IMG/VR virus record: IMGVR_UViG_2877948078_000002
DNA length: 46,331 bases
Direction: 5' to 3' (one strand)
DNA from: a virus
Lineage: Duplodnaviria; Heunggongvirae; Uroviricota; Caudoviricetes
Below the pieces are notes generated by a model. That model was not told the origin of the DNA, made no database searches, and saw only the letters and a program-made list of their open reading frames with translations. The translations under genes and the position numbers were made by a program. This document shows, one piece after another, positions 20-43,025 of the stretch (the first letter of the stretch is position 1; each line of letters begins with the position of its first letter).

Positions 20-1315
20 TTAATTTTTCATTGCTTCGTTATGGGGCATGGTTGGGGCAAACTCGCTTAACTGTGTATTTAACAAAGCTACCTGTGCATT
101 ATTGTTTTCAGACATCCATTTTCCGTATACCTGAAATACCATTTGCGCATCTGCATGGCCCATCTGGTTTGCTATAAATGCCGGGTTAGCACCAGCTGTC
201 AGCGACCAGCAGGCATAAGTATGTCTCGACTGATATGATTTTCGATGGCGGAGTCCGGCACGTTTTATCGCTGCGTCCCACATCTGCCTTATTGAGTCAA
301 CGGTAAAATGGTCACCATAATTTTTTACTCTCGCTGACACTTCAGGTTGAAAAACAAAGGTGCATTTTTGTTTTTCTGTTCTGCCATACTCTCTGAGGTG
401 AACATCAATGATATGCTCTTTGCTCAGTCTTGTTAATGTCATCTGACTCCAGAGAGCGTCGATTGCTGGCTTAATAAGATGAATGACCCGATTGGTTCCC
501 GCCTGTGTTTTTGGTACCGTGAAACGGTCTTTTGCTAAATTTCTCCTGATCATCATTGTTCCATTTTTCAGATCTATGTCCTCCCATCCAAGTGCACACA
601 GCTCACCAGGGCGAATGCCAGTATAAACAGAAACACACCATAAATTTTTTGCTTGCTGATTTCTGCACGCATCGATAAGACGGATAAATTCCTCCCGCGA
701 AAGAGGATCCGGAATGGTTCTTGATTCCTTTAATGGCGAGATCCCCTTAAACGGATTATCTGCCAGGTAACCGTTATCAACACCAAACTGGAACACGGCG
801 TTAAGATTTGTCATGTAATTATTTACAGTTACAGCCGATCTCCCTGGTTGTGTAACAATATAGTTACTTTTGGGGATCTGGTATCCAGTCAGTAGCTCTT
901 TACGAACCTCCAGTAATTTTTCTTTATTAATCGATGAGGCAAGATTTTTTTCACCGATTATGCTCAGGATATTTTTGATGACGGCACGGTATGTGTTGAG
1001 TGATGTTTTGGCGACTTCAGTTTCTTTCAGTGCCAGAAATTTTTCAGCCAGTTCTTTTATGGTTAAATCTTGTCGGGCCTCACCAAATTTTTCCAGATTG
1101 CGTGAGGAGGGAAACTGTTTTGCATAGTCGAAAACACCAGTTTTTATTGCGTAACAAACAGAGGAGCGTAGTTCACCTGCAACGCGCCTGTTTTTTGCTG
1201 TGTCAGGAACCCCCAGATTTTCCCTGACTCTTACGCCTTTATAAACAAACCAGATACGTAATTTCCCTCCATGGTTTTCCACGCCTGTCGGATATTTCAT
1301 TTCAACTTCTCTCAT
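20..1315 (-). CDS. int: Phage integrase, tyrosine recombinase (lambda Int family)
   Basis: 431-aa ORF; C-terminal catalytic region with conserved R...HxxR...Y pattern (…RHTYACWSLTAGANPAFIANQMGHADAQMVFQVYGKWM…); located at the prophage end next to an excisionase-like gene. Confidence 0.9.
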   Translation of the reverse strand: MREVEMKYPTGVENHGGKLRIWFVYKGVRVRENLGVPDTAKNRRVAGELRSSVCYAIKTGVFDYAKQFPSSRNLEKFGEARQDLTIKELAEKFLALKETEVAKTSLNTYRAVIKNILSIIGEKNLASSINKEKLLEVRKELLTGYQIPKSNYIVTQPGRSAVTVNNYMTNLNAVFQFGVDNGYLADNPFKGISPLKESRTIPDPLSREEFIRLIDACRNQQAKNLWCVSVYTGIRPGELCALGWEDIDLKNGTMMIRRNLAKDRFTVPKTQAGTNRVIHLIKPAIDALWSQMTLTRLSKEHIIDVHLREYGRTEKQKCTFVFQPEVSARVKNYGDHFTVDSIRQMWDAAIKRAGLRHRKSYQSRHTYACWSLTAGANPAFIANQMGHADAQMVFQVYGKWMSENNNAQVALLNTQLSEFAPTMPHNEAMKN

Positions 1316-1334
1316 TAGTTAGTGTGGCTTTTAG

Positions 1335-1586
1335 TCAAGTAAGATGACGTCTTGGTCTCGCTGATGCCTGGCGCTCAATCCAGCGATCAATTTCTTCCAG
1401 GTTGTAAAAGCATGGACTGTTATCCCATGGCATACCGTCATGAGCGACATGCTTATATTCCCTTCCTTCCATAAACGATTTTTCCCGGGCCTTTTTTAAC
1501 GTACCTTTTTTTATTCCTTTCAGCGCAATTAACTGCTCTTCGGATACCCATTTGCCGGGAGAGACAATCATGATTACTTCGCTCAT
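1335..1586 (-). CDS. xis: Excisionase-like protein (Xis)
   Basis: 83-aa ORF immediately upstream of int on the same strand; resembles Rac YdaQ/XisR as recalled (…VSPGKWVSEEQLIALKGIKKGTL…GREYKHV…). Confidence 0.65.
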   Translation of the reverse strand: MSEVIMIVSPGKWVSEEQLIALKGIKKGTLKKAREKSFMEGREYKHVAHDGMPWDNSPCFYNLEEIDRWIERQASARPRRHLT

Positions 1587-1658
1587 CGATTTCTTTATCT
1601 CTTACATCAGACGAGCGCCGGTTGCAGAATACCAGCCACAACCGGCGACAGTTGAACA

Positions 1659-4130
1659 TTAAGAATCAGCCTGACTCGGGATCAGTTTTTGCCAGATAAC
1701 TGAAACGTATTTTGCCTGGTAACGGGCGTCATCAAGTGCATTATGGCGCTCACCTTCGAATGGAATAGCCGTTCTGGCATCGAAGTCTATGGCTTTCCCC
1801 AGCTCAACGATTGTGCGTACATCGCGATCGTTGTAGTAACGCCACGGGCAGGGGATCCCCTGCCGTTCGTATGAACGGCGCAAAATCGTGTTGTCGAAGT
1901 TGGCTCCATTTCCCCAAACCTGAACAAAAAATTCACCGGAGTTTTCGTCGATAAATTCCCGCAATTGTAACAGTGCATCATCTAACGGGATTTCATCGGT
2001 CATAATGGCAGATTGCGCTTCGCGTGATTGCTTAAGCCACCATTTAATGGTGTCCCGATCAATGACTCCGCCAGCAGTTTCCAGATCGATAGTCTTACTA
2101 AATTCCGGTCCCATATCTCCGGTTTGCGGATCGAAAAATATTGCACCTATTGAGATGATCGGGGCATCAGGATTTTTTCCCATGGTTTCAAGGTCGATCA
2201 TTAGATGGTCACACGTCCTGCTGGTGGATGTGATTTCGTGATGACCGTTCACCTTAATTGGGTGATCTGCCGTCTCGCCAGTTTCATTATCGCTATTGTG
2301 ATGCTGATTGCCGCCAGTGTTCTCCTTGTGTGGATGTTCAGCGCCTTCCATTTCCTCCGGATCATCTTCCTGAACTTCAACCTGATACTCTTCATCGAAT
2401 GTTTCCTGGTATGTTGCGTCGCCCATCACCGCGCCACAATCAGGGCAGTTGCCGCCGCCGGTCTGACCGCAGGCGGTGCAGGCTTTTTCCACTTCCTGGT
2501 GCGCCACTGGTTCAGGCTGTTTCGTTTCTGGCTCGTTTTGTAACGCATTTGGACTGTTTTGTTCCGCTTTTTGGTAGTTCCGTTCCGATTCATGCTGGTT
2601 CTGGTTCACAGAATCGCGGGTCTGGATCCCCTTAACCCATTTCGGATCATTCGGGTCACTAATCCCTTCAACAAATTCACCACGTGATGCAGCAAGCAAC
2701 TTATCGGCGTCAGGCTGGCTGATATTGGCTGCCTGCATAATTTTGTTTACTTCGTCAGCAGTAACTTTTATCGGCTCTGGTTGTTCTGAATCTTCAGCGG
2801 TATCTACATTTTGCGGTAAGCCCGTGTATGTGCCATTTTTTCGGGCAAAATATTCTTCTTTTGTGATTTCAGTGGCGCCAGCAGCCAGTGCCTTATCCAG
2901 ACCAGAAAGTTTGTTTGCGCGACCGTATTTTTCTCCGTCCTTATCTGCGAAGAGGAAATAGAACGGCCCCTCACGCTCTACAGATGGTTCAGCTTCCGGC
3001 GCGGTTTCATTTTTTGGGATATCAGATACCTCAGTTTCCACTGCATCAGTTTGTGTTTCTGATGACTGGAGAACATCAACAGTGCCCAGGTCTGTTTCTT
3101 CATTTTCAAACACGCCCTTTGTCGTCAGGTATTCGCAGGTATATTTGTTCAGTGCTACGGGATCTTTGTGAATGTCGATCGGACGCTCACGGACAAGGCC
3201 AAAAATAGTTTGGCGGTCGTAGCGAAGGGCATCAGGCTGTTTGCGCATTGATGCCGAGATACGCTTCCAGTCTTCGCGGTCGTTGTCGATAACTTCTTTT
3301 TTTGCCCAGCGATGGATGCTGCCGTCAATGTTTCCGGCATCCACATCACCAGGCCAGAGAGCGTAGGCCAGTTCGTCATCCAGTGTTTTCCATGTCTGCT
3401 TGTATTCGCGATGAATGGCAGCAATGACCGGGCTGATTTTTCCTGTTGAATTTTCAGTGTACTGTTGATTGGCTCTGGCGCGGGCGAGATCAACAACAGA
3501 CGTGTATTTTCCGGTTTCCTTGCGTTCACCTTCGCGACGTTTTTTCCAGATGCGCATCTCTGCCTGAATTTCGGGCCATTTAGCACCAGGAATACATTTA
3601 TGCTTAACCCACCCAATGGCGTGCAACTTAAGCTCCGGATACATGGCGTTAACTTCTGGCATTTTCATCAACGCTTCAACGATATGTCCGTCGAATGTTG
3701 CCATGTCTTCCTGCAACAATTCCTGTGCGCTAATCACCATATCAACGGTGATGTTTTCACATGTGTCGAACTTAACCATGACAGCGTTCTGTACTTCAGG
3801 GGCCAGCTTGTCAAAAGTGACGTTCATCGGATCGGATTCAGTCTCAACCGGGACAAAAGAAGCAGACTCCTCATCCCAGCGGTTTTCCTGCATATATTCA
3901 GCATCCCATGAATCGAGGGCAGGGCGGGGTATGCCAGGTTTATCCTCGCAGACAATAAATTTATAAGCGCAGTCCTGAGCAGCCGGATAATGTTCCAGGA
4001 ATTGCCAGTGAAATTTTGCTCGAGCACGGCGTTCGTCGCCAGCTTCAATGGCTGTGGCTACAGCCACAGCGCCTTCTTCCCTTGTTGCCAGTTCGTCAGG
4101 AATAGCGGCGCAAATAAAGACTTTACTCAT
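1659..4130 (-). CDS. Large early protein with C-terminal DEDDh (DnaQ-like) 3'-5' exonuclease domain; annotated in relatives as exodeoxyribonuclease VIII-like; occupies the ydfE position
   Basis: 823-aa ORF; C-terminus shows three exonuclease motifs ([30 protein letters not shown]); acidic low-complexity linker and a CxxC…CxxC element mid-protein; no Bet/RecT-like partner gene nearby. Confidence 0.75.
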
Positions 4131-4223
4131 TTTGTTTTAACCTCATGACAGATTTAAGGATGAACAAATCCCTGCCATTGCTGGCATATAAGAATGAAAC
4201 CGGATATTTATTACGGAACTGTT

Positions 4224-4415
4224 TTAAAGACCTGCCGGGATTTCGATATTATCCTGGTGAATAACTTTATCGACCGGGTAACAGTTACCGGGAATTTTCT
4301 GTTCGGTTGCTGCAGTCATACACTCCTGCATTGTCCTGTGAACACTGACTGCAATATCAACTGGCACTCCGGGAACAAGAAAAACTGTCAGAACAAGCGC
4401 AAATGCTGAATTCAT
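4224..4415 (-). CDS. ydfD: YdfD-like small protein (63 aa) with hydrophobic N-terminus; K-12 homologue reported to cause lysis when overexpressed
   Basis: Internal ATG at 4413-4415 (minus) gives a 63-aa product MNSAFALVLTVFLVPGV…; start overlaps the dicB stop (ATGA); position downstream of dicB as in Qin. Confidence 0.55.
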   Translation of the reverse strand: MNSAFALVLTVFLVPGVPVDIAVSVHRTMQECMTAATEQKIPGNCYPVDKVIHQDNIEIPAGL

Positions 4416-4600
4416 TGTGCACATCCTTTTGGCATCAGACGTAAACGAGCCAGCATTGAAACAATGCATATTTTATTTAATAGCTCCCGTTCTTGTTTTC
4501 TCTTGTTAATGGCATCTTCAGTAAATACAGGGTTACTGATAGTGACACCAATTTCAAAACAACCTTCAGACGTATTAACGTTTGGTAATAACGTTTTCAT
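4412..4600 (-). CDS. dicB: Cell-division inhibitor DicB (MinC-activating)
   Basis: 62-aa product MKTLLPNVNTSEGCFEIGVTISNPVFTEDAINKRKQERELLNKICIVSMLARLRLMPKGCAQ matches DicB as recalled in sequence and length; lies just downstream of dicF. Confidence 0.85.
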   Translation of the reverse strand: MKTLLPNVNTSEGCFEIGVTISNPVFTEDAINKRKQERELLNKICIVSMLARLRLMPKGCAQ

Positions 4601-4769
4601 TATCGCGTCCTCAACAATGAATTTTGTGATGCAGTGCCTGGTGCCTCCAGGTGACGTTAACCAGTTAACAATTAACGTCGGATACAGAGAATCCACCCAT
4701 AACACTGTTTTTGGTTTTAACTGTTCCGCGTGCGCTTAGCCGCATTCACCGCATCACAAAATTCACTTT

Positions 4770-4827
4770 AAAAACGGCGGCAGAGCAGTCACGGAGTAAA
4801 ACTGATACCGCCAAACGTCACCAGAAA
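4770..4827 (-). ncRNA. dicF: DicF small RNA (ftsZ-targeting sRNA) with intrinsic terminator
   Basis: Reverse complement of 4775..4827 reads TTTCTGGTGACGTTTGGCGGTATCAGTTTTACTCCGTGACTGCTCTGCCGCC followed by a T-run, matching the recalled 53-nt DicF; sits between ydfA-side ORFs and dicB as in Qin. Confidence 0.8.
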
Positions 4828-5086
4828 ATTGATAACAGAGGGCGTTGCAGCGGGGTTGTCACTTAAGCGTATGGTCAACCTGACAACTCGGTGTCCTCAA
4901 CGGGGAAGGAATAACCCCGCCATACTTACCGCCGCGCCATTTTGCGGGTTGCCACAACCGGAAGCGCACGGTCGAATTAAATTTAACGACACCGTACAGT
5001 GAGACGAACTTCGCCGTGCGCTTTCGTGTTGTGTGCCTGCTTTTAACCACGTCAGGCGAGGTGGTATCCTTAAAATCACCACAGTT

Positions 5087-5662
5087 TTAAGGATTCATTA
5101 AGCAATGTCGCAACCACCAATAAATCCGCTTAAGAACATGAAAATTGATTACTGGTATAAAGCGCTTACAGTTGTTGGCGCTGCGTTGTTTGTCTTTAAT
5201 GGAACGTCTTTTTTTGACAGATATCCCGTTGTTCCATTGGGTTTTTTGTCCTCCGGCATCTTTTTTATTGGTTTGGGGGAGTGGATTAATCACCCTCTCA
5301 AAGTGAGATTTATTGATCCTGGAGTTTGGACTCGTGGATATAATCGTTCTTCGTGCGCACTCAGTATCATCTTCGACATACTTGGTTGTTTCCTGATTGT
5401 TACAGGAGTCGTCAAGTTCTTCTGATGTAAAACCGCAAATGGGGCACGTAACGGGAATTTTGAAAAGCGTTTCTCCGGGTTCCAGAACAAAATTTTCTGC
5501 GGTCTGATTTTGCTTCTCATATTTGTGCTCCGCGTCATTGTGAGAGCACATTCTTATTCTGAGTGCCTGTTTAAACTCACTGAAGCTGAGAGCTTCTTCG
5601 CCTTCGGCAAGGCCTTCGAAGTATTCTTCGTAAGCCTTTTCCATGATTGTGTCGAAATCCAT
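5087..5662 (-). CDS. Hypothetical early protein (191 aa from MDFDT…), acidic N-terminus with CxxC motif; possibly corresponds to ydfB/ydfC of K-12 in a longer open frame
   Basis: ATG at 5660-5662 (minus) lies 2 nt after the ydfA stop (TGAtATG) with a GGTGAG Shine-Dalgarno-like sequence; C-terminal half is K/R/N-rich and is exactly antisense to a plus-strand membrane-protein ORF, so the true extent is uncertain. Confidence 0.4.
   Translation of the reverse strand: MDFDTIMEKAYEEYFEGLAEGEEALSFSEFKQALRIRMCSHNDAEHKYEKQNQTAENFVLEPGETLFKIPVTCPICGFTSEELDDSCNNQETTKYVEDDTECARRTIISTSPNSRINKSHFERVINPLPQTNKKDAGGQKTQWNNGISVKKRRSIKDKQRSANNCKRFIPVINFHVLKRIYWWLRHCLMNP
5105..5425 (+). CDS. Putative small inner-membrane protein (SieB-like superinfection-exclusion candidate), antisense to the early-left operon
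   Basis: 106-aa ORF with AAGGA Shine-Dalgarno 10 nt upstream of the ATG; three hydrophobic segments (ALTVVGAALFVF; GFLSSGIFFIGLG; ALSIIFDILGCFLIVTGVV); opposite orientation to the surrounding genes, as sieB is in Rac (recalled). Confidence 0.3.
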   Translation: MSQPPINPLKNMKIDYWYKALTVVGAALFVFNGTSFFDRYPVVPLGFLSSGIFFIGLGEWINHPLKVRFIDPGVWTRGYNRSSCALSIIFDILGCFLIVTGVVKFF

Positions 5663-5663
5663 A

Positions 5664-5819
5664 TCACTCACCTGAGTTTCTTTCCAGCCAGCGACGGGCA
5701 CCATTTTCGGTTTTAAACGTTTTGCTTTTGGTATACGTCATCGCGGTGAACGTGCCGTCCTGGTTGGGGAACACGCCACATACCAGAGATTCGCTGTTGC
5801 CAAGATCGATAGTATCCAT
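5664..5819 (-). CDS. ydfA: YdfA-like small protein (51 aa)
   Basis: Internal ATG at 5817-5819 gives 51 aa MDTIDLGNSESLVCGVFPNQDGTFTAMTYTKSKTFKTENGARRWLERNSGE; first gene downstream of dicA on the same strand, as in Qin. Confidence 0.7.
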   Translation of the reverse strand: MDTIDLGNSESLVCGVFPNQDGTFTAMTYTKSKTFKTENGARRWLERNSGE

Positions 5820-5933
5820 GCTGACCTCATTTCCCCTTAACGCCGGGGTAGCGGAACTGTTTGCTGAGAACACCGTGCGGTGTCTTGATGGAAAGCAATT
5901 TAGAATAACCTAACATAAGAGGCAAGTGTTTTT

Positions 5934-5951
5934 TGTTAGATTAGTCTAACA
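5934..5951. promoter_or_regulatory. Palindromic operator TGTTAGA-N4-TCTAACA (putative DicA site) in the promoter region of the leftward ydfA…dicB operon
   Basis: Perfect 7-bp inverted repeat with 4-bp spacer (TGTTAGATTAGTCTAACA) between dicA stop and ydfA start; second copy of the same half-sites at 6445..6462. Confidence 0.6.
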
Positions 5952-5987
5952 AAAAGAGTGGGCGCAACTAATCACTTGAAAAGAATG

Positions 5988-6395
5988 TTATTTTATTGAT
6001 TTATTTTTACGCGCTTTAAGCATTTCTTCGAAGAGTTTGTTGAAGTTTTCTACTCTTGCGCGCATTTCAGACAGCAAGGCTTCCTGCTCGGAAGATGGAA
6101 GAGCATCGAATAATTCGATCAATTCTTTGTGGTTGGGAGTTAGCTCTGTTTCCACATGAAGTTCTTGTGCCGGCACTGGTGCCTTGTCTTCGTCACCAAA
6201 CATTAGCCATGTAGGTGAGCACTTCAGAGCATCCGCTAAAGCAAACAATCGTTTTCCGACTGGCTGGGTTTCGTCTCTTTCCCATTGTGAAATTGTGACG
6301 TGAGCAACCCCAGCGAGGCGCGCAGCTTCTCGTTGTGTTAAGCGTAATTCTTTTCGTCGCGCCAGAACTCGCTGGCCTAGGGTTCTTGTATCCAT
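5988..6395 (-). CDS. dicA: Prophage repressor DicA (XRE-family HTH, C2/cI-like)
   Basis: 135-aa product MDTRTLGQRVLARRKELRLTQREAARLAGVAHVTISQWERDETQP… with HTH motif; closely resembles DicA as recalled; divergent from a cro-like gene. Confidence 0.9.
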   Translation of the reverse strand: MDTRTLGQRVLARRKELRLTQREAARLAGVAHVTISQWERDETQPVGKRLFALADALKCSPTWLMFGDEDKAPVPAQELHVETELTPNHKELIELFDALPSSEQEALLSEMRARVENFNKLFEEMLKARKNKSIK

Positions 6396-6417
6396 AGTTA
6401 GGTAATTCTAATTTTTC

Positions 6418-6445
6418 TTGACTTAGGTATCCCGCGCACAATAAT
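6418..6445 (+). promoter_or_regulatory. Candidate sigma70 promoter for dicC (-35 TTGACT, about 16-17 nt spacer, -10 CATAAT/ATAATG) overlapping the operator
   Basis: TTGACT at 6418..6423, -10-like hexamer at 6440..6446, operator palindrome begins at 6445. Confidence 0.45.
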
Positions 6446-6462
6446 GTTAGAAAAGTCTAACA
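6445..6462. promoter_or_regulatory. Palindromic operator TGTTAGA-N4-TCTAACA in the dicA/dicC divergent intergenic region
   Basis: TGTTAGAAAAGTCTAACA; identical half-sites to the 5934..5951 copy; overlaps the -10/+1 of the dicC promoter candidate. Confidence 0.6.
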
Positions 6463-6475
6463 ATAGGAGGCTTTG

Positions 6476-6703
6476 ATGCTTAAAGCTGACGCAATTACTT
6501 TTTTTGGCAGCAAAACAAAGCTTGCCAATGCCGCAGGAGTGAGACTGGCAAGTGTTGCTGCTTGGGGGATACTGGTTCCTGAAGGTCGCGCGATGCGTCT
6601 ACAGGAGGCATCTGGCGGGGAGCTTCAGTATGATCCCAAAGTTTATGACGAATATCGTAAGACGAAGCGGGCGGGGCGATTGAACAATGAAAATCACTCC
6701 TGA
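6476..6703 (+). CDS. dicC: Cro-like regulator DicC
   Basis: About 75-aa product MLKADAITFFGSKTKLANAAGVRLASVAAWG…EGRAMRLQEASGGELQYDPKVYDEY…; AGGAGG Shine-Dalgarno 5 nt upstream of the ATG; divergent from dicA. Confidence 0.85.
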   Translation: MLKADAITFFGSKTKLANAAGVRLASVAAWGILVPEGRAMRLQEASGGELQYDPKVYDEYRKTKRAGRLNNENHS

Positions 6704-7208: not shown

Positions 7209-8154
7209 ACGCCCACTGGTTATAAACACACAGCTTGCGATGAAGATTGGCTTAAATGAAGCCATTGTGTTGCAGCAGTTGCATTACTGGTTGAGAGATA
7301 CCAATTCCGGCATGGAATGTGATGGTGTTCGCTGGATTTACAACACAACGGAACAATGGCTGGAACAGTTCCCATTCTGGTCAGAGTCAACGTTAAAGCG
7401 CGCGTTTGCAAGTCTGAAAACGCTGGGGCTTTTGCGTTGTGAAAAGCTCAATAAATCAAAGCGCGATATGACCAATTTCTACACGATCAACTATGGGAGC
7501 GAGCTTTTAGATGGTGGCAAATTGAACGAATCCATCGGTTCAAAATGCGCCGCTCCATCAGGTCAAAATGACACGATGGAAGAGGTCAAAATGAAACGCT
7601 CCATTGGTTCAAAACGACCCAATGTCATCGGGTCAAAATGGCCTGATGATCTTACAGAGAATACAACAGAGATTACTACAGAGAATAAAAACACTTTTCG
7701 TCCGGAAGCTTCGCAACCGGACCCGCAGACCGCTGAACAGGATTTTTTAACCCGGAACCCCGACGCGGTTGTGTTTAGTGCGAAAAAACGCCAGTGGGGT
7801 AGCAGGGAGGATTTGGCGTGTGCGCAGTGGATTTGGGGGCGGATCGTGAACCTTTACGAACAGGCTGCCAGCGACGATGGAGAGATCATGCGACCAAAAG
7901 AGCCTAACTGGACAGCCTGGGCCAATGACGTGCGCACAATGCGGATGCTGGATGGCAGAAGCCACAGACAAATTTGCGAAATGTTTGGTCGGGTACAGCG
8001 AGATCCATTCTGGGTAAAAAACATCATGAGCCCGTCAAAACTCCGCGAAAAATGGGACGAACTGGTCATCCGCTTGGGACGTTCACCTGTACAGCGTTGT
8101 GTGAATCATATTTCTGAACCGGATACAGAAATTCCGCCTGGTTTCAGGGGATAA
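7189..8154 (+). CDS. Replication initiator / replisome organizer (helix-turn-helix N-terminus, DnaT-like C-terminus); contains the iteron array
   Basis: About 320-aa product; N-terminal region resembles phage replisome organizers; internal SIGSK peptide repeats are encoded by the DNA iterons at 7531..7640, as in lambda O. Confidence 0.75.
   Translation: MSLLFAERPLVINTQLAMKIGLNEAIVLQQLHYWLRDTNSGMECDGVRWIYNTTEQWLEQFPFWSESTLKRAFASLKTLGLLRCEKLNKSKRDMTNFYTINYGSELLDGGKLNESIGSKCAAPSGQNDTMEEVKMKRSIGSKRPNVIGSKWPDDLTENTTEITTENKNTFRPEASQPDPQTAEQDFLTRNPDAVVFSAKKRQWGSREDLACAQWIWGRIVNLYEQAASDDGEIMRPKEPNWTAWANDVRTMRMLDGRSHRQICEMFGRVQRDPFWVKNIMSPSKLREKWDELVIRLGRSPVQRCVNHISEPDTEIPPGFRG
7531..7640. repeat. 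Iteron array (5 direct repeats of about 17 bp, tccatcGGTCAAAATG, period about 23-24 bp) followed by an AT-rich tract: putative origin of replication
   Basis: Repeats at 7531-7547, 7554-7570, 7579-7593, 7599-7616, 7624-7640; downstream 7641..7690 carries three ACAGAGAAT(T)A repeats and is AT-rich. Confidence 0.65.
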
Positions 8155-8934: not shown

Positions 8935-10422
8935 GTGGACATTAGAGACTGGCTACCAGAATTTCAAGTTTCAGCAGAAACAGATCGGGACTTACAGACC
9001 TATTTTTTTAAGCTACCGGCGATAAAGGATATTATTGAAAGTAGGGCTTGGTTGGTTCTTGGAAGAAAAGGTACTGGTAAAACAGCCATTTATGAACACC
9101 TTAGAAGAGGAAAACCAGCCAATCTCAACGGGTTTTACTCAGTATGTCTAAATTTTAGTGACTATCCATGGCCAGCCCATCAACTTTACAAGGATGCAAT
9201 GGCTGGAGAACTTTCCGCTTATCAAAAAAGTTGGATGTATCTTTTTTATATTAAGGCATTATCTAAACTTATTGAAATAAAAAATGATGCTGGAGAGACT
9301 TTAAACAAAGATCTAACGTGGGCACATAATTATATCAAAACTATCTTTGGTAGTCCCGACCCAACTCTTAGGGAGGTTTTGTTTTCAAAAATAACTAGAT
9401 TAAAAACCATAAAAGGGCCCAGTGCTGGTCTTAATGAAGTATCATTGGACGCAGGTGAAATTTCGTTAGAGGAAGTTGCTGAGAATGCTCAGCTAAAGCA
9501 AAAGCTAAGAGCTAATGCTTTCACATTGCTTACGTATTTTGAAAAAATTTTTAAAGATAACATTGGTAATGAAAAAATAATTATCGCCCTTGACCAATTA
9601 GACGAAAACTGGCTAGAGGGGCAAATTGAAGAATATAGTAAGGTTTTAATAAATCTGCTAAATGTCTGTAGAAACATAGCATCTGATGAACGCCTCAATG
9701 ATAAATTAAAAGTCATTCCCTTCCTACGAACGGATATTTATCATTCTTTGAAATTCAATGATAAAAACAAATTATTGCAAGATAGTGCTATCATAATCTC
9801 ATGGAATGAAAATAATCTAAACGATATGTATTATGAGAGGATAAAGAAATACAAACCTAATGATCTCATATTAGATGACGAAAAGGACAGATCTGGGAAA
9901 GTATTTGAGGTTTCATTCGTTAGGCAGGGGACTCCTCCATTTAAATATATATGTCGCCGTTCTTTCTTTAGGCCTAGGGATATTATTGTCTACTTCAACA
10001 AAATTAGGGCATGTCATAAAAATAATGTCTCAGGTCTTTACACTTCCAATGAGCTTTATGAAGCTGACCGTGAAGCATCTATAAGTGTGTACAATGAGGT
10101 GATTGATGAATGGTCCAACCAATTCCCTGAAATTGAGAACTTACTAACTGTTCTTCAAACTATCCAAGTAGAAACATTCGATTTTAATGATTTCTCCGAG
10201 AAGTGCCGTAATGAATTTGCAGGTATTTCTGATGGGGTGATACGTCAATATATCAACTTCCTGTTTGATAACTCACTTATCGGACAAAAAAAACAAGGTA
10301 GATGGGAATACGTAAGTAGTTTGCCTAACTTAAAAATTAATCTACAAAATGAGTTTAGGACACATCATGCTTTAAAATACAGGTTGCATTTAATAGAAAG
10401 CAGACCGAGCCAAAATATTTAG
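8935..10422 (+). CDS. Uncharacterized P-loop NTPase (495 aa): Walker A GRKGTGKT at residues 43-50, Walker B-like IIIALDQLDE at 215-224, uncharacterized C-terminal half of about 270 aa; candidate defence or exclusion gene
   Basis: GTG start with AAGAGGA Shine-Dalgarno; gene and upstream region visibly AT-rich compared with flanking phage genes (estimate by eye, roughly 35-40% versus about 50% G+C); occupies the slot that holds relBE next to hokD in K-12 Qin as recalled. Confidence 0.85.
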   Translation: MDIRDWLPEFQVSAETDRDLQTYFFKLPAIKDIIESRAWLVLGRKGTGKTAIYEHLRRGKPANLNGFYSVCLNFSDYPWPAHQLYKDAMAGELSAYQKSWMYLFYIKALSKLIEIKNDAGETLNKDLTWAHNYIKTIFGSPDPTLREVLFSKITRLKTIKGPSAGLNEVSLDAGEISLEEVAENAQLKQKLRANAFTLLTYFEKIFKDNIGNEKIIIALDQLDENWLEGQIEEYSKVLINLLNVCRNIASDERLNDKLKVIPFLRTDIYHSLKFNDKNKLLQDSAIIISWNENNLNDMYYERIKKYKPNDLILDDEKDRSGKVFEVSFVRQGTPPFKYICRRSFFRPRDIIVYFNKIRACHKNNVSGLYTSNELYEADREASISVYNEVIDEWSNQFPEIENLLTVLQTIQVETFDFNDFSEKCRNEFAGISDGVIRQYINFLFDNSLIGQKKQGRWEYVSSLPNLKINLQNEFRTHHALKYRLHLIESRPSQNI

Positions 10423-10439
10423 CTTACATCCATCTCCAT

Positions 10440-10694
10440 TAAGAAATCTTGCTATTGTTCTTATGGATCGTCTTTCTGACTGATTTCATATTGGCGAGGT
10501 AAAGGTAGTTAAGTAGAATGGCTGCGGGTGCTTGAGGCTATCTGCCTCGGGCATGAACACCAAAGGCAGATAGAGAAAAGCCCCAGTTAACATTACGCGT
10601 CCTGCAAGACGCTTAACATTAATCTGAGGCCAATTTCATGCTAGACACATGTAGGTTAGCCTCTTACGTGCCGAAAGGCAAGGAGAAGCAGTCT
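10440..10694. promoter_or_regulatory. hok mRNA leader / putative sok antisense RNA region with stable stem-loops
   Basis: Perfect 10-bp inverted repeat CTATCTGCCT…AGGCAGATAG (10538-10547 / 10564-10573), a second hairpin GCGTC…GACGC and direct repeats TTAACATTA around 10586..10625; in-frame upstream extension of hok (mok-like reading frame). Confidence 0.45.
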
Positions 10695-10850
10695 ATGAAG
10701 CAGCAAAAGGCGATGTTAATCGCCCTGATCGTCATCTGTTTAACCGTCATAGTGACGGCACTGGTAACGAGGAAAGACCTCTGCGAGGTACGAATCCGAA
10801 CCGGCCAGACGGAGGTCGCTGTCTTCACAGCTTACGAACCTGAGGAGTAA
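10695..10850 (+). CDS. hokD: Hok-family type I toxin (HokD/RelF-like, 51 aa)
   Basis: MKQQKAMLIALIVICLTVIVTALVTRKDLCEVRIRTGQTEVAVFTAYEPEE matches HokD/RelF as recalled; single transmembrane helix; AGGAG Shine-Dalgarno 9 nt upstream. Confidence 0.85.
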   Translation: MKQQKAMLIALIVICLTVIVTALVTRKDLCEVRIRTGQTEVAVFTAYEPEE

Positions 10851-11384: not shown

Positions 11385-11663
11385 ATGGCACGCAACGTAA
11401 AATATTACAATTCTGATAATTCGCCCGTTCTTGCCTGCACGCACGAGCGGTATTCTCACGCATTCAAGTCTGAATGGTTCCAACACCCTCCATGCACTGA
11501 AGAGCAGGCTGAATGGATAATTCAGTGTTACCGCAGGCGCGGATACGAGGTTAAGAAAGCCCTTAGTCTCGACTACCGTCACTGGATAATCTCAGTCAGA
11601 TTGCCTTACTCCGAACGCCCACCACGTGCGTCCCGCACTTTCCAGCAACGGATCTGGAGGTAA
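11385..11663 (+). CDS. Hypothetical protein (92 aa)
   Basis: ORF ending 2 nt before the ydfU GTG start; no recognisable motif. Confidence 0.4.
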   Translation: MARNVKYYNSDNSPVLACTHERYSHAFKSEWFQHPPCTEEQAEWIIQCYRRRGYEVKKALSLDYRHWIISVRLPYSERPPRASRTFQQRIWR

Positions 11664-11664
11664 C

Positions 11665-12714
11665 GTGCGGGTATTACTTAGACCTGTTCTGGTGCCTGAG
11701 CTTGGGCTGGTGGTCCTTAAGCCGGGCCGTGAATCCATACAGATATTTCATAATCCTCGAGTGCTGGTGGAACCGGAACCAAAAAGCATGCGTAATCTGC
11801 CATCCGGAGTCGTTCCTGCCGTTGGCCAGCCGCTGGCGGAAGACAAAACATTGCTGCCGTTTTTTAGTAACGAACGGGTGATTCGTGCTGCTGGCGGCGT
11901 TGGCTCATTGTCTGACTGGCTATTACGTCATGTTACATCCTGCCAGTGGCCTAATGGCGATTACCATCACACTGAAACAGTCATTCACCGTTATGGTACC
12001 GGCGCAATGGTGTTGTGTTGGCACTGCGACAACCAACTGCGTGACCAGACATCGGAATCACTGGAGCTGCTTGCTCAACAAAATCTGACAGCATGGGTGA
12101 TTGACGTCATCCGTCACGCAATAAGCGGTACGCAGGAGCGGGAATTATCTTTGGCTGAATTATCCTGGTGGGCGGTCTGCAATCAGGTGGTGGATGCACT
12201 ACCTGAGGCTGTATCGCGTCGTTCGCTGGGATTACCAGCGGAAAAAATCTGCTCGGTGTACCGCGAAAGCGACATCGTACCGGGAGAGCAGACCGCCACC
12301 AGCATATTGAAACAACGCACAAAAAATCTTGCACCGTTGCCTTACGCCCACCAGCAACAAAAACTACCACAGGAAAAGACGGTGGTAAGCATCACCGTTG
12401 ATCCAGAGTCTCCGGAATCTTTCATGAAGCTGCCTAAACGTCGCCGCTGGGTTAAGGAGAAATACACACGTTGGGTTAAGACACAGCCGTGTGCTTGCTG
12501 CGGTATGCCAGCCGACGATCCGCATCATCTGATTGGTCACGGGCAGGGCGGAATGGGAACAAAAGCACATGATCTCTTTGTGTTGCCTTTGTGCAGAAAG
12601 CATCACAACGAGCTGCATACGGATACAGTGGCATTTGAAGAGAAGTATGGCTCCCAACTGGAGCTGATATTTCGTTTTATCGATCGCGCGCTGGCAATTG
12701 GCGTACTGGCGTAA
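11665..12714 (+). CDS. ydfU: YdfU (DUF968) protein with C-terminal Cys/His HNH-like zinc motif
   Basis: GTG at 11665 with GGAGG Shine-Dalgarno gives 349 aa, the length recalled for K-12 YdfU; C-terminus CACCGMPADDPHHLIGHGQGG…CRKHHNELH. Confidence 0.75.
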   Translation: MRVLLRPVLVPELGLVVLKPGRESIQIFHNPRVLVEPEPKSMRNLPSGVVPAVGQPLAEDKTLLPFFSNERVIRAAGGVGSLSDWLLRHVTSCQWPNGDYHHTETVIHRYGTGAMVLCWHCDNQLRDQTSESLELLAQQNLTAWVIDVIRHAISGTQERELSLAELSWWAVCNQVVDALPEAVSRRSLGLPAEKICSVYRESDIVPGEQTATSILKQRTKNLAPLPYAHQQQKLPQEKTVVSITVDPESPESFMKLPKRRRWVKEKYTRWVKTQPCACCGMPADDPHHLIGHGQGGMGTKAHDLFVLPLCRKHHNELHTDTVAFEEKYGSQLELIFRFIDRALAIGVLA

Positions 12715-14114: not shown

Positions 14115-14414
14115 AAAAATTCCTTAATACTGATAACTTGGCGCACTATACACACGTTCCTGAAGAAAGCTATAGTTTTTTGATGGGGTTGAAGATGGCT
14201 GGATGTCTAAAATAAACATTGCTTCATATGTTCAACTATGCGTTAATGATTGCGTCGGTTTGAAGAACAGACGATATACGAAGTAGTTTACTAAAGCAGT
14301 TCTCATTTCAGGTGTTATTCACTTATTCCTTCTTTGAGTCTCTCCAATTAAGTACGAAGTCGTTTCTGTTATGCAAACCATTTATGCCGAAAGGCTCAAG
14401 TTAAGGAATGTAGA

Positions 14415-14630
14415 ATGTCAAATAAAATGACTGGTTTAGTAAAATGGTTTAACGCTGATAAAGGTTTCGGCTTTATTTCTCCTGTTGATGGTAGTAAAGA
14501 TGTGTTTGTGCATTTTTCTGCGATTCAGAATGATAATTATCGAACCTTATTTGAAGGTCAAAAGGTTACCTTCTCTATAGAGAGTGGTGCTAAAGGTCCT
14601 GCAGCAGCAAATGTCATCATTACTGATTAA
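14415..14630 (+). CDS. cspB: Cold-shock protein CspB
   Basis: 71-aa product [71 protein letters not shown] with RNP1/RNP2 motifs; long 5' leader upstream. Confidence 0.9.
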
Positions 14631-14911
14631 AATTCATCGCTCGTCTGTATACGATAACGAAGAAGGCTGATGCCTGAGTAGAGATACGGACAGAGTAGTG
14701 AATATTGGATTTCTTTAATAAAAATTAAGGAGGTCCAATACATGAAACAATGGCCAGCATATTTGGCAAAATCTTAATCAGGAAAAGTATGCTAACCATT
14801 GTGGTGAAGTGCAGGTTTGCTGCATGAATAGTTTTACAGCAGAAGCTAACTGCTGGCATGGCAAAACAAAGTGCGTAAGTGGATGACTCCCACAAAAAGC
14901 ACCACAATCTC

Positions 14912-16939: not shown

Positions 16940-17302
16940 GGTAATATTAAATCGGAACATTTACATCGCGGAATGTAAAATTTAAATAAAAAGGACTCTT
17001 CCATGAGCCAAAATTCCTGAAATCTTAAGGGTAAGATAAAAGGTCTTAATCAGAATGACACGTTATTATTAATAAATAAAGCTATTCTTTCATTGCTGTG
17101 TTTTTCTTTACAAAAGTAATCCTTGCTATGGGTGGTTAATCATGCGTTAATGGTGTTCTGGTTTGTTACAAATTTATCTGAAGCAGTCATTGTTATAATT
17201 TTATTATTTGTACCTCTTGAGATTTCCTTGTTGGTTTTTCTCTCTGATATTTTTTTTCGGACCATTCTGCCCAAGGGCTAATTTCTTCAAAAGGTAATAA
17301 TT

Positions 17303-17515
17303 ATGTCTAACAAAATGACTGGTTTAGTGAAATGGTTTAACCCTGAAAAAGGTTTTGGTTTCATCACGCCGAAAGATGGCAGCAAAGATGTGTTTGTCCA
17401 TTTCTCAGCAATTCAGAGCAACGATTTCAAAACATTAACTGAGAATCAGGAAGTTGAATTTGGTATTGAGAACGGACCTAAAGGTCCTGCCGCTGTTCAT
17501 GTAGTGGCGCTTTGA
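17303..17515 (+). CDS. cspI: Cold-shock protein CspI
   Basis: 70-aa product [70 protein letters not shown]; long AT-rich 5' leader. Confidence 0.9.
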
Positions 17516-17719
17516 GGTAGACAATATTACAAACCATATTCACTTTAGATGCCCGTGTTGTCATGGTTCCCAGTATAGAACATCATCTTTTGATGTTTCT
17601 GACATGAATCCTTTCGGGGCAAAATGTATCTTTTGTAAATCAATGATGATTACATTTGATAATATTTCACAATACTTAAATGCCAGCCGTCTGTCGTTGG
17701 ATTTAAAAAAGTGAAAATG

Positions 17720-42450: not shown

Positions 42451-43025
42451 TGGCATTCAGAATGAGTGAACAACCACGGACCATAAAAATTTATAATCTG
42501 CTGGCCGGAACTAATGAATTTATTGGTGAAGGTGATGCATATATTCCGCCTCATACAGGTCTGCCAGCAAACAGTACCGATATTGCACCGCCAGATATTC
42601 CGGCTGGCTTCGTGGCTGTTTTCAACAGTGATGAGTCATCGTGGCATCTCGTTGAAGATCATCGGGGTAAAACGGTTTATGACGTGGCTTCCGGCGACGC
42701 GTTATTTATTTCTGAACTCGGTCCGTTACCGGAAAATGTTACCTGGTTATCGCCGGAAGGGGAGTTTCAGAAGTGGAACGGCACAGCCTGGGTGAAGGAT
42801 ACGGAAGCAGAAAAACTGTTCCGGATCCGGGAGGCGGAAGAAACAAAAAACAACCTGATGCAGGTAGCCAGTGAGCATATTGCGCCGCTTCAGGATGCTG
42901 CAGATCTGGAAATTGCAACGGAGGAAGAAATCTCGTTGCTGGAAGCATGGAAAAAGTATCGGGTATTGCTGAACCGTGTTGATACGTCAACTGCACAGGA
43001 TATTGAATGGCCAGCACTGCCGTAG
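42450..43025 (+). CDS. tfa: Tail fibre assembly protein (Tfa)
   Basis: 191-aa ORF immediately after stf (TAATG overlap); size and position of lambdoid Tfa. Confidence 0.85.

Follow-up and report, generated by a model that had tools for sequence, protein, structure and literature searches.

A natural domain swap in a lambdoid prophage: a predicted DexA-family DEDDh exonuclease domain on a RecE-type scaffold

Introduction

The stretch of DNA analysed here (hereafter the window; 46,331 nucleotides, IMG/VR record IMGVR_UViG_2877948078_000002) is a complete lambdoid prophage, 98.9% identical to phage HannyBb over the first 8.6 kb compared, and it raises the question of what is done by an 823-amino-acid (aa) protein encoded in its early region. 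The protein ends in a predicted 3'-5' exonuclease domain, most of the rest is shared with recombination proteins of the RecE type, and no annealase is encoded with it. Recombineering relies heavily on the RecE/RecT pair, yet no function is known for the N-terminal two-thirds of RecE; the one clue is that this part boosts linear-linear recombination (review PMC11611040). The 823-aa gene has been annotated before: PHROG 2082 'exonuclease' covers the protein over its full length, and the RefSeq labels are 'exonuclease' or '3'-5' exonuclease', and often also '3'-5' exoribonuclease'. In the literature it is uncharacterised, and our literature searches found no paper on this protein or on the ydfE product. 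What is new is that it can be placed in a family of proteins built on the RecE scaffold, of which it is one cassette.

Architecture of the 823-aa protein

The gene is an open reading frame (ORF) on the minus strand, with an ATG start, a TAA stop, and a ribosome-binding site (the Shine-Dalgarno sequence GAGG) 10 nt upstream of the start. Its product is divided here into three modules, with the following features:

1659-4130, minus strand: intact YdfE-type gene of 823 aa, comprising scaffold, RecE-like middle and DEDDh exonuclease domain (ORF, PHROG, RefSeq)
3525-4130, minus strand: module A, aa 1-202, made up of an alpha/beta domain at aa 1-100 and, at aa 105-202, a helical one, corresponding to Pfam YdfE_N/YdfE_C
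2250-3347, minus strand: module B, aa 262-627, the RecE-like middle, with a helical piece (aa 245-343), conserved islands and disordered acidic linkers
2436-2480, minus strand: zinc-ribbon-like element CTAC-x7-CPDC, aa 551-565 (motif scan), conserved in K-12 RecE
2331-2450, minus strand: acidic tract, aa 561-600, with 14 D/E and 0 K/R (composition)
2250-2264, no strand assigned: mosaic junction at about codons 622-627, with RecE-type homology stopping just upstream of the nuclease domain (blastn and protein alignment)
1692-2207, minus strand: module C, aa 642-813, predicted DEDDh 3'-5' exonuclease domain of the Rv2179c/DexA family (Pfam PF16473, PDB match)

Judging from its sequence, module C is a DEDDh domain of the DexA/Rv2179c family with a complete catalytic set. 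Pfam PF16473 (Rv2179c-like 3'-5' exoribonuclease domain) matches aa 642-813 with E=2.4e-67 and 226.5 bits (the cutoff being 27), over positions 2-177 of the 177-position model, and the same scan of the protein gave a weak RNase_T match. When the whole protein was searched against the sequences of the PDB, only T4 DexA (a 227-aa exodeoxyribonuclease, 8kel/8ken) was matched, in module C, with E=1.6e-6. Alignment with DexA and with a 190-aa homologue from an E. coli phage revealed that all five DEDDh residues are kept: D646 and E648 (MIDLETMG), D746 (GANFD), and H796 and D801 (HNALDD, H-x4-D), which align with D7, E9, D119, H186 and D191 of DexA. Membership of PF16473 and the five catalytic residues are thus shared with both T4 DexA and Rv2179c of M. 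tuberculosis; these two, however, are standalone proteins of about 170-230 aa without any scaffold, and the identity to DexA is only 27-28%. An earlier note on this DNA, made from the sequence alone, had recognised a C-terminal DEDDh exonuclease from its motifs, an assignment that the PF16473 match and the five residues bear out; the alternative named there, a PD-(D/E)XK nuclease fold of the RecE type (PF12684), was not found in the Pfam scan of the protein.

The same note had described the N-terminal 600 residues or so as uncharacterised, which has to be revised. Residues 1-256 agree throughout (256/256) with what the K-12 pseudogene ydfE encodes, and aa 262-627 are homologous to residues 278-592 of K-12 RecE (BLASTP, 39% identity, E=4e-61), tblastn placing RecE on window positions 3347-2250. 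From aa 473 the two proteins become near-identical, and this stretch takes in the zinc ribbon and the acidic tract, the two elements that the note had correctly pointed out within this region. The Pfam families YdfE_N (PF27430) and YdfE_C (PF27432) are recorded for a 92%-identical representative (P0010) and for the RecE-type hybrids described below. K-12 RecE itself has a PF06630 Exonuc_VIII domain at its N-terminus, in contrast to the YdfE-type first 260 aa of this protein. The NCBIfam equivalog model for RecE, NF007259, is matched by aa 246-623 at model positions 271-600 only, and as a full-length RecE the protein fails, with 277.8 bits against a cutoff of 1269. The homology to RecE-type proteins ends at aa 627.

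The same scaffold on the RecE nuclease

A protein search with aa 1-640 returned two architectures that share the N-terminus at 86-97% identity. The first is that of proteins of 812-826 aa with PF16473, one cluster of which holds 23,183 member sequences. The second consists of proteins of approximately 900 aa that carry PF12684, and in these aa 1-627 are shared at 89-97% identity; for one of them (P0113) the protein alignment runs at 89% identity across aa 1-627 and ends at aa 627. The DNA gives the same boundary, since blastn against the locus of a 900-aa RecE-type form (L007) shows homology from window position 5044 down to 2264, where it stops, and the breakpoint against K-12 recE falls at the same place, 2264. 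In two contigs with the 900-aa form the gene order is dicB, DUF1482 (ydfD), the 900-aa gene, recT overlapping its end, lar, xis and int, at the Rac site. From the breakpoint at 2264 and the recT-bearing hybrids, it follows that the DEDDh domain replaces the RecE nuclease domain, recT and accessory genes at the junction in the acidic linker. The 823-aa gene is a natural domain swap, and one cassette of a modular family of proteins that occupy the recombination slot of phages. Modules A and B (aa 1-627) make up a scaffold onto which different C-terminal effectors are freely recombined, and the acidic linker just before the effector is the point of exchange.

The likeness to the Rac system is twofold, in the slot that the gene occupies (within the early-left operon, upstream of xis-int) and in the region corresponding to RecE 278-592, zinc ribbon and acidic tract included. 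The difference lies in the effector, which is a PD-(D/E)XK nuclease with 5'-3' polarity in RecE and a DEDDh domain with predicted 3'-5' polarity here, and in the absence of recT downstream. The contrast that the earlier note had drawn with Rac recE/recT holds for the missing recT; it does not hold for the scaffold, which is that of RecE with its nuclease domain and recT swapped out.

Other effectors on the scaffold

An exhaustive search with aa 1-627 against 1.84 billion cluster representatives matched only 242 clusters, and 50 long representatives (of clusters at 50% identity) were dissected with domain queries. In this family, module B is preceded by an N-terminus of the YdfE type or of the K-12 RecE type (Pfam Exonuc_VIII), and it is followed by a DEDDh domain, a PD-(D/E)XK domain or a C-terminal region without a Pfam match. 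All four combinations of N-terminus (YdfE or RecE) and nuclease (DEDDh or PD-(D/E)XK) were found among the 50%-identity cluster representatives. The zinc ribbon is an optional insert, seen in only 7 of the 50 long representatives.

The largest class without a Pfam match comes from Enterobacter, Klebsiella aerogenes, Citrobacter, Pantoea and Kosakonia, bears the NCBI name 'exodeoxyribonuclease VIII' and carries a conserved KKSLTDAxKKALSxLGFSADV motif. Pfam Rad52_Rad22 reaches only E=0.01 on it, and tests against PDB sequences, Erf and Foldseek were negative. A profile of this C-terminal domain, however, matches standalone proteins of about 243 aa with E about 1e-58 and 42-45% identity, several of which have the NCBI name 'Rad52/Rad22 family DNA repair protein'. 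These fusions again occupy the recombination slot, with kil and a Gam-like gene ahead of them and a Gp157 gene behind. By these sequence matches, in Enterobacter, Pantoea, Citrobacter and Klebsiella the scaffold is joined to a predicted annealase of the Rad52 family. This is a new finding: the same scaffold carries putative Rad52-type annealases that have been mislabelled as exonuclease VIII. Three kinds of effector thus occur on the scaffold in nature, two nucleases (one 5'-3', the other 3'-5') and an annealase, the polarity and the annealase being assigned by domain family. One scaffold on three effectors represents a ready comparative system for asking what the scaffold binds, and many of the database entries named 'exodeoxyribonuclease VIII' have another nuclease in its place or lack one altogether.

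Additional scaffold fusions were observed in four other proteins (P0126, P0256, P0264, with a C-terminal region of about 260 aa, and P0352); in one class the C-terminal region has no Pfam match (PHROG 26058, function not known), and one of the four proteins bears a ParB-type helix-turn-helix domain (PF17762).

Absence of an annealase partner

Scans of the early-region ORFs with Pfam and PHROG yielded regulators, a replication initiator, DUF977, a P-loop ATPase, a DUF968/HNH protein and Q, and no annealase. In a six-frame tblastn of the 46-kb window with RecT, Bet, Erf, lambda Exo, Gam, Abc1 and Abc2 as queries, only the RecE middle region was matched; Rad52-like proteins, a Rad52-domain profile, GamL and Gp157 proteins had no match in the window. 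Likewise, all reading frames of the window lack a recognisable inhibitor of RecBCD (lambda Gam, P22 Abc1/Abc2 or GamL). RecT, Bet, Erf and Rad52-like queries had no match in phage HannyBb, where Gam and Abc were also absent. The earlier note had reported no annealase gene between int and the dicB module, and the Pfam, PHROG, tblastn and profile searches extend this to the whole 46-kb prophage.

The same is seen beyond this prophage. All 73 of the IMG/VR viral-contig loci that reach past the scaffold carry the DEDDh domain, and RecT, Bet, Erf and Rad52 were detected in 0/73 of them; for the three DEDDh-fusion loci examined from GTDB (E. ruysiae, E. albertii and S. flexneri), none of these four was present up to 10 kb away. 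Compared with two-component recombinases such as Red and RecET, this system has no adjacent annealase gene, and its domain family points to a 3'-5' polarity, not 5'-3'. Since no annealase is encoded, the protein cannot act as one half of a classic exonuclease and annealase pair and would have to work by itself or in concert with host functions.

The dicB operon and its Qin setting

The genes around the 823-aa gene are those of a dicB operon at the prophage end:

5988-6395, minus strand: DicA-type repressor, head of the operon (Pfam HTH_3; K-12-like layout)
4775-4826, minus strand: DicF small RNA (Rfam RF00039, 72.5 bits, E=3.5e-14)
4412-4600, minus strand: dicB, cell-division inhibitor, 62 aa (PHROG 1251; RefSeq)
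4224-4415, minus strand: ydfD homologue (DUF1482), immediately upstream of the 823-aa gene in the same operon (PHROG 1092; RefSeq 'lysis protein YdfD' in a near-identical locus)
1335-1586, minus strand: excisionase, directly downstream of the 823-aa gene (PHROG 539)
20-1315, minus strand: integrase, terminal in the prophage and next to rspB, where Qin attaches (ORF; RefSeq context in the E. coli MRE162 locus described below)

The DicA-type repressor is followed in the operon order by a DUF1391 gene (ydfA-like), and the order in the window parallels dicA, ydfA-C, dicF, dicB, ydfD, ydfE of K-12. Only 72 bp separate the stop codon of the exonuclease gene from the start of the excisionase gene, with no gene between them. 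A scan of 1200-6600 with a crude consensus detected no sigma-70-like site on the minus strand, which is weak evidence, and the terminator-like matches of the consensus scan were at chance level only. Most simply, the dicB early operon, controlled by DicA, ends with the 823-aa gene. In K-12, ydfE (b1577, Qin cryptic prophage) shares residues 1-256, the locus and the operon order with this gene; however, it is cut by IS2E after codon 256 and is a pseudogene without module B and the exonuclease, whereas the gene in the window is intact.

A degraded Qin remnant was found in E. coli MRE162 (L001, 2280-6860). It keeps int, xis, an intact exonuclease gene (99.9% identical), ydfD and dicB, and it has lost the dicA/dicC immunity region, dicF, the replication genes and the structural genes. 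Within the window operon, a predicted 205-aa ORF (5087-5704, minus strand) takes the place of the K-12 genes ydfB and ydfC, and its 3' part comes near the DicF region. This ORF was considered as a hidden annealase and rejected, as it has no Pfam match and matches only PHROG families of unknown function.

Prevalence and selection

In a census of 5426 complete E. coli genomes, the whole gene gave matches in 4800, and the DEDDh part was present in 4069 (approx. 75%), at 8098 places and up to 7 per genome; the cassette formed by the RecE nuclease and recT was found in 1750 genomes, versus 4069 for the DEDDh cassette. The version with opposite predicted polarity is thus the commonest one in E. coli, which flags a very abundant predicted prophage enzyme with a possible part in phage growth or host protection. 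The ORF is far from a chance one, being intact in all 66 of the IMG/VR copies that could be read through to the stop codon. For 54 distinct viral-contig alleles, the ratio of non-synonymous to synonymous polymorphism (pN/pS) was 0.16 for aa 1-260, 0.43 for aa 261-627 and 0.28 for aa 628-823, as pooled pairwise values that are hence not independent. All three modules are under purifying selection. A copy in Shigella flexneri (L124, 10001-12441) aligns in overlapping or split pieces, which suggests frameshifts, and it is likely a pseudogene.

Possible role of the protein

The reading that we favour, by judgement from sequence and with moderate confidence, is that the protein would be an active early 3'-5' exonuclease, targeted by its scaffold to the site where RecE acts and trimming 3' DNA ends without a dedicated annealase. 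After derepression, a metal-dependent 3'-5' exonuclease would be made early, and the shared scaffold would bring it to the place where RecE and the fused annealases act, proposed here to be double-strand DNA ends or replication/recombination intermediates. At such a RecE-type site the DEDDh domain would trim 3' ends, alone or together with host functions, and the candidate pay-offs would be recombination, end protection, scavenging or exclusion. Several points weigh against this reading. The PF16473 family spans a DNA exonuclease (T4 DexA) and an RNA exonuclease (Rv2179c), and by sequence the substrate may be DNA or RNA, single- or double-stranded. A 3'-5' exonuclease would destroy the 3' tails used by annealases and RecA, so that a direct role in favour of recombination is not obvious. 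The targeting by the scaffold is something we infer from the shared architecture only; the folded parts of the scaffold match no solved structure, and its function is unknown even in RecE (review PMC11611040). In addition, the promoter scan was a crude consensus search, which leaves room for expression from the prophage state.

A more general and tentative proposal, which may well be wrong, is that the YdfE/RecE scaffold acts as a general adaptor in the recombination systems of enterobacterial phages and delivers interchangeable effectors (5'-3' nuclease, 3'-5' nuclease or Rad52-type annealase) to one common target, perhaps a protein of the host or some structure at DNA ends. If true, the DEDDh version, the most frequent in E. 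coli, would define an undescribed phage pathway of 3'-end processing that is independent of an annealase, and comparison of the three natural fusions would show what the N-terminal two-thirds of RecE do.

Another explanation is that the DEDDh domain would serve in defence or superinfection exclusion of the HREX/EcD type, degrading the DNA of incoming phages (e.g., the 5-hydroxymethylcytosine (5hmC)-modified DNA of T-even phages) and protecting the lysogen; we consider it unlikely, though worth weighing. T4 DexA switches substrates, and EcD, an E. coli homologue of DexA, digests T4 DNA, which contains 5hmC, and not unmodified DNA, and protects cells from T4 (Kang et al., Nucleic Acids Research 2025, PMC12153337). 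EcD belongs to the same domain family, is found on mobile elements and is 38% identical to module C; the presence of the gene in three-quarters of the genomes, in up to 7 copies, the purifying selection on it and its intact state in a Qin remnant devoid of structural genes and immunity region would also fit a protective function. Nevertheless, the published HREX signature, in which Trp and an acidic residue persist at DexA positions 152 and 169 while the tetramer residue Asp90 is lost, is not present: the 5hmC-contact and tetramer residues of DexA do not follow the published pattern here, W152 being replaced by Y766 and D169 by A780 (the alignment around DexA position 169 is uncertain), and the tetramer residue D90 being retained as D718, whereas EcD keeps the Trp and has Ala at the D90 position. 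Given these differences at Y766, A780 and D718, the published defence result is not simply transferable to the 823-aa protein. Moreover, the gene ends a repressor-controlled operon without a promoter-like site of its own and is probably silent in lysogens, and the 627-aa scaffold, which EcD lacks, is common to recombination proteins (RecE and the Rad52 fusions) and not to known defence proteins. PADLOC gave only a generic match to a Cas-associated DEDDh protein (E=1.8e-5).

An RNA-directed 3'-5' exoribonuclease similar to Rv2179c, acting in early lytic growth on host or phage RNA or on nucleic-acid parts of host immunity, seems to us improbable. The Pfam family is named for a 3' exoribonuclease, RefSeq often uses the corresponding label, and the same operon makes the regulatory RNA DicF; against this, the closest characterised phage relatives, DexA and EcD, are DNA exonucleases, the scaffold otherwise bears effectors of DNA recombination, and the window holds no pointer to an RNA target. 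Still more improbable, to the point that we give it little credence, is a functionless relic, in which what is left of a recE would have become fused, through an in-frame deletion, with an accessory DEDDh gene downstream of it, the product simply hitch-hiking in prophages. Such an origin by deletion is plausible in view of the standalone DEDDh genes of lambdoid/P22-like phages (e.g., 1720a-02, 190 aa), which in other E. coli phages are situated close to xis/int, in the accessory 'ea' region, and match the whole of module C at 60% identity, and which are fused to no scaffold; the IS2-disrupted copy of K-12 and the apparently fragmented copy of Shigella flexneri point in the same direction. The low pN/pS of each module, the 66 intact ORFs and the 4069 genomes with the cassette speak against loss of function, and the DEDDh cassette is also found behind the other type of N-terminus (P0130 and others), which indicates that the fused state was retained repeatedly.

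EcD itself was considered as the possible C-terminus of the 823-aa protein, and this was rejected; with the primers of the paper it was recovered in viral contigs as a separate, standalone protein of 189 aa (MIDTET...TPFLNI, Ala78). Its gene is on the predicted viral contigs L097, L102, L112, L113, L115 and L118, and the EcD reverse primer printed in the supplement of the paper has one extra A with respect to these contig sequences.

Other features of the window

Between the replication genes and hok/sok, a stretch with a G+C content of 0.34 contains a gene (8935-10422, plus strand) for a 495-aa P-loop ATPase, named 'Sll1717 family' in RefSeq. It has no Pfam match, and PADLOC gave only a weak candidate (PDC-M28C, E=4e-5). 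The gene has the appearance of an insert of accessory or defence type. Further downstream, the gene at 11626-12714 (plus strand) encodes a DUF968 (YdfU-type) protein with an HNH-like C-terminus and a sub-threshold match to PF16786 (RecA-dependent nuclease, E=0.0026), which may bear on how a phage without an annealase recombines. Rfam matches, all on the plus strand, were found at 10526-10697, 14254-14646, 17157-17542 and 42793-42991; they correspond to a sok antitoxin RNA (next to hok), two thermoregulator leaders of the cspA type and an IS009 RNA.

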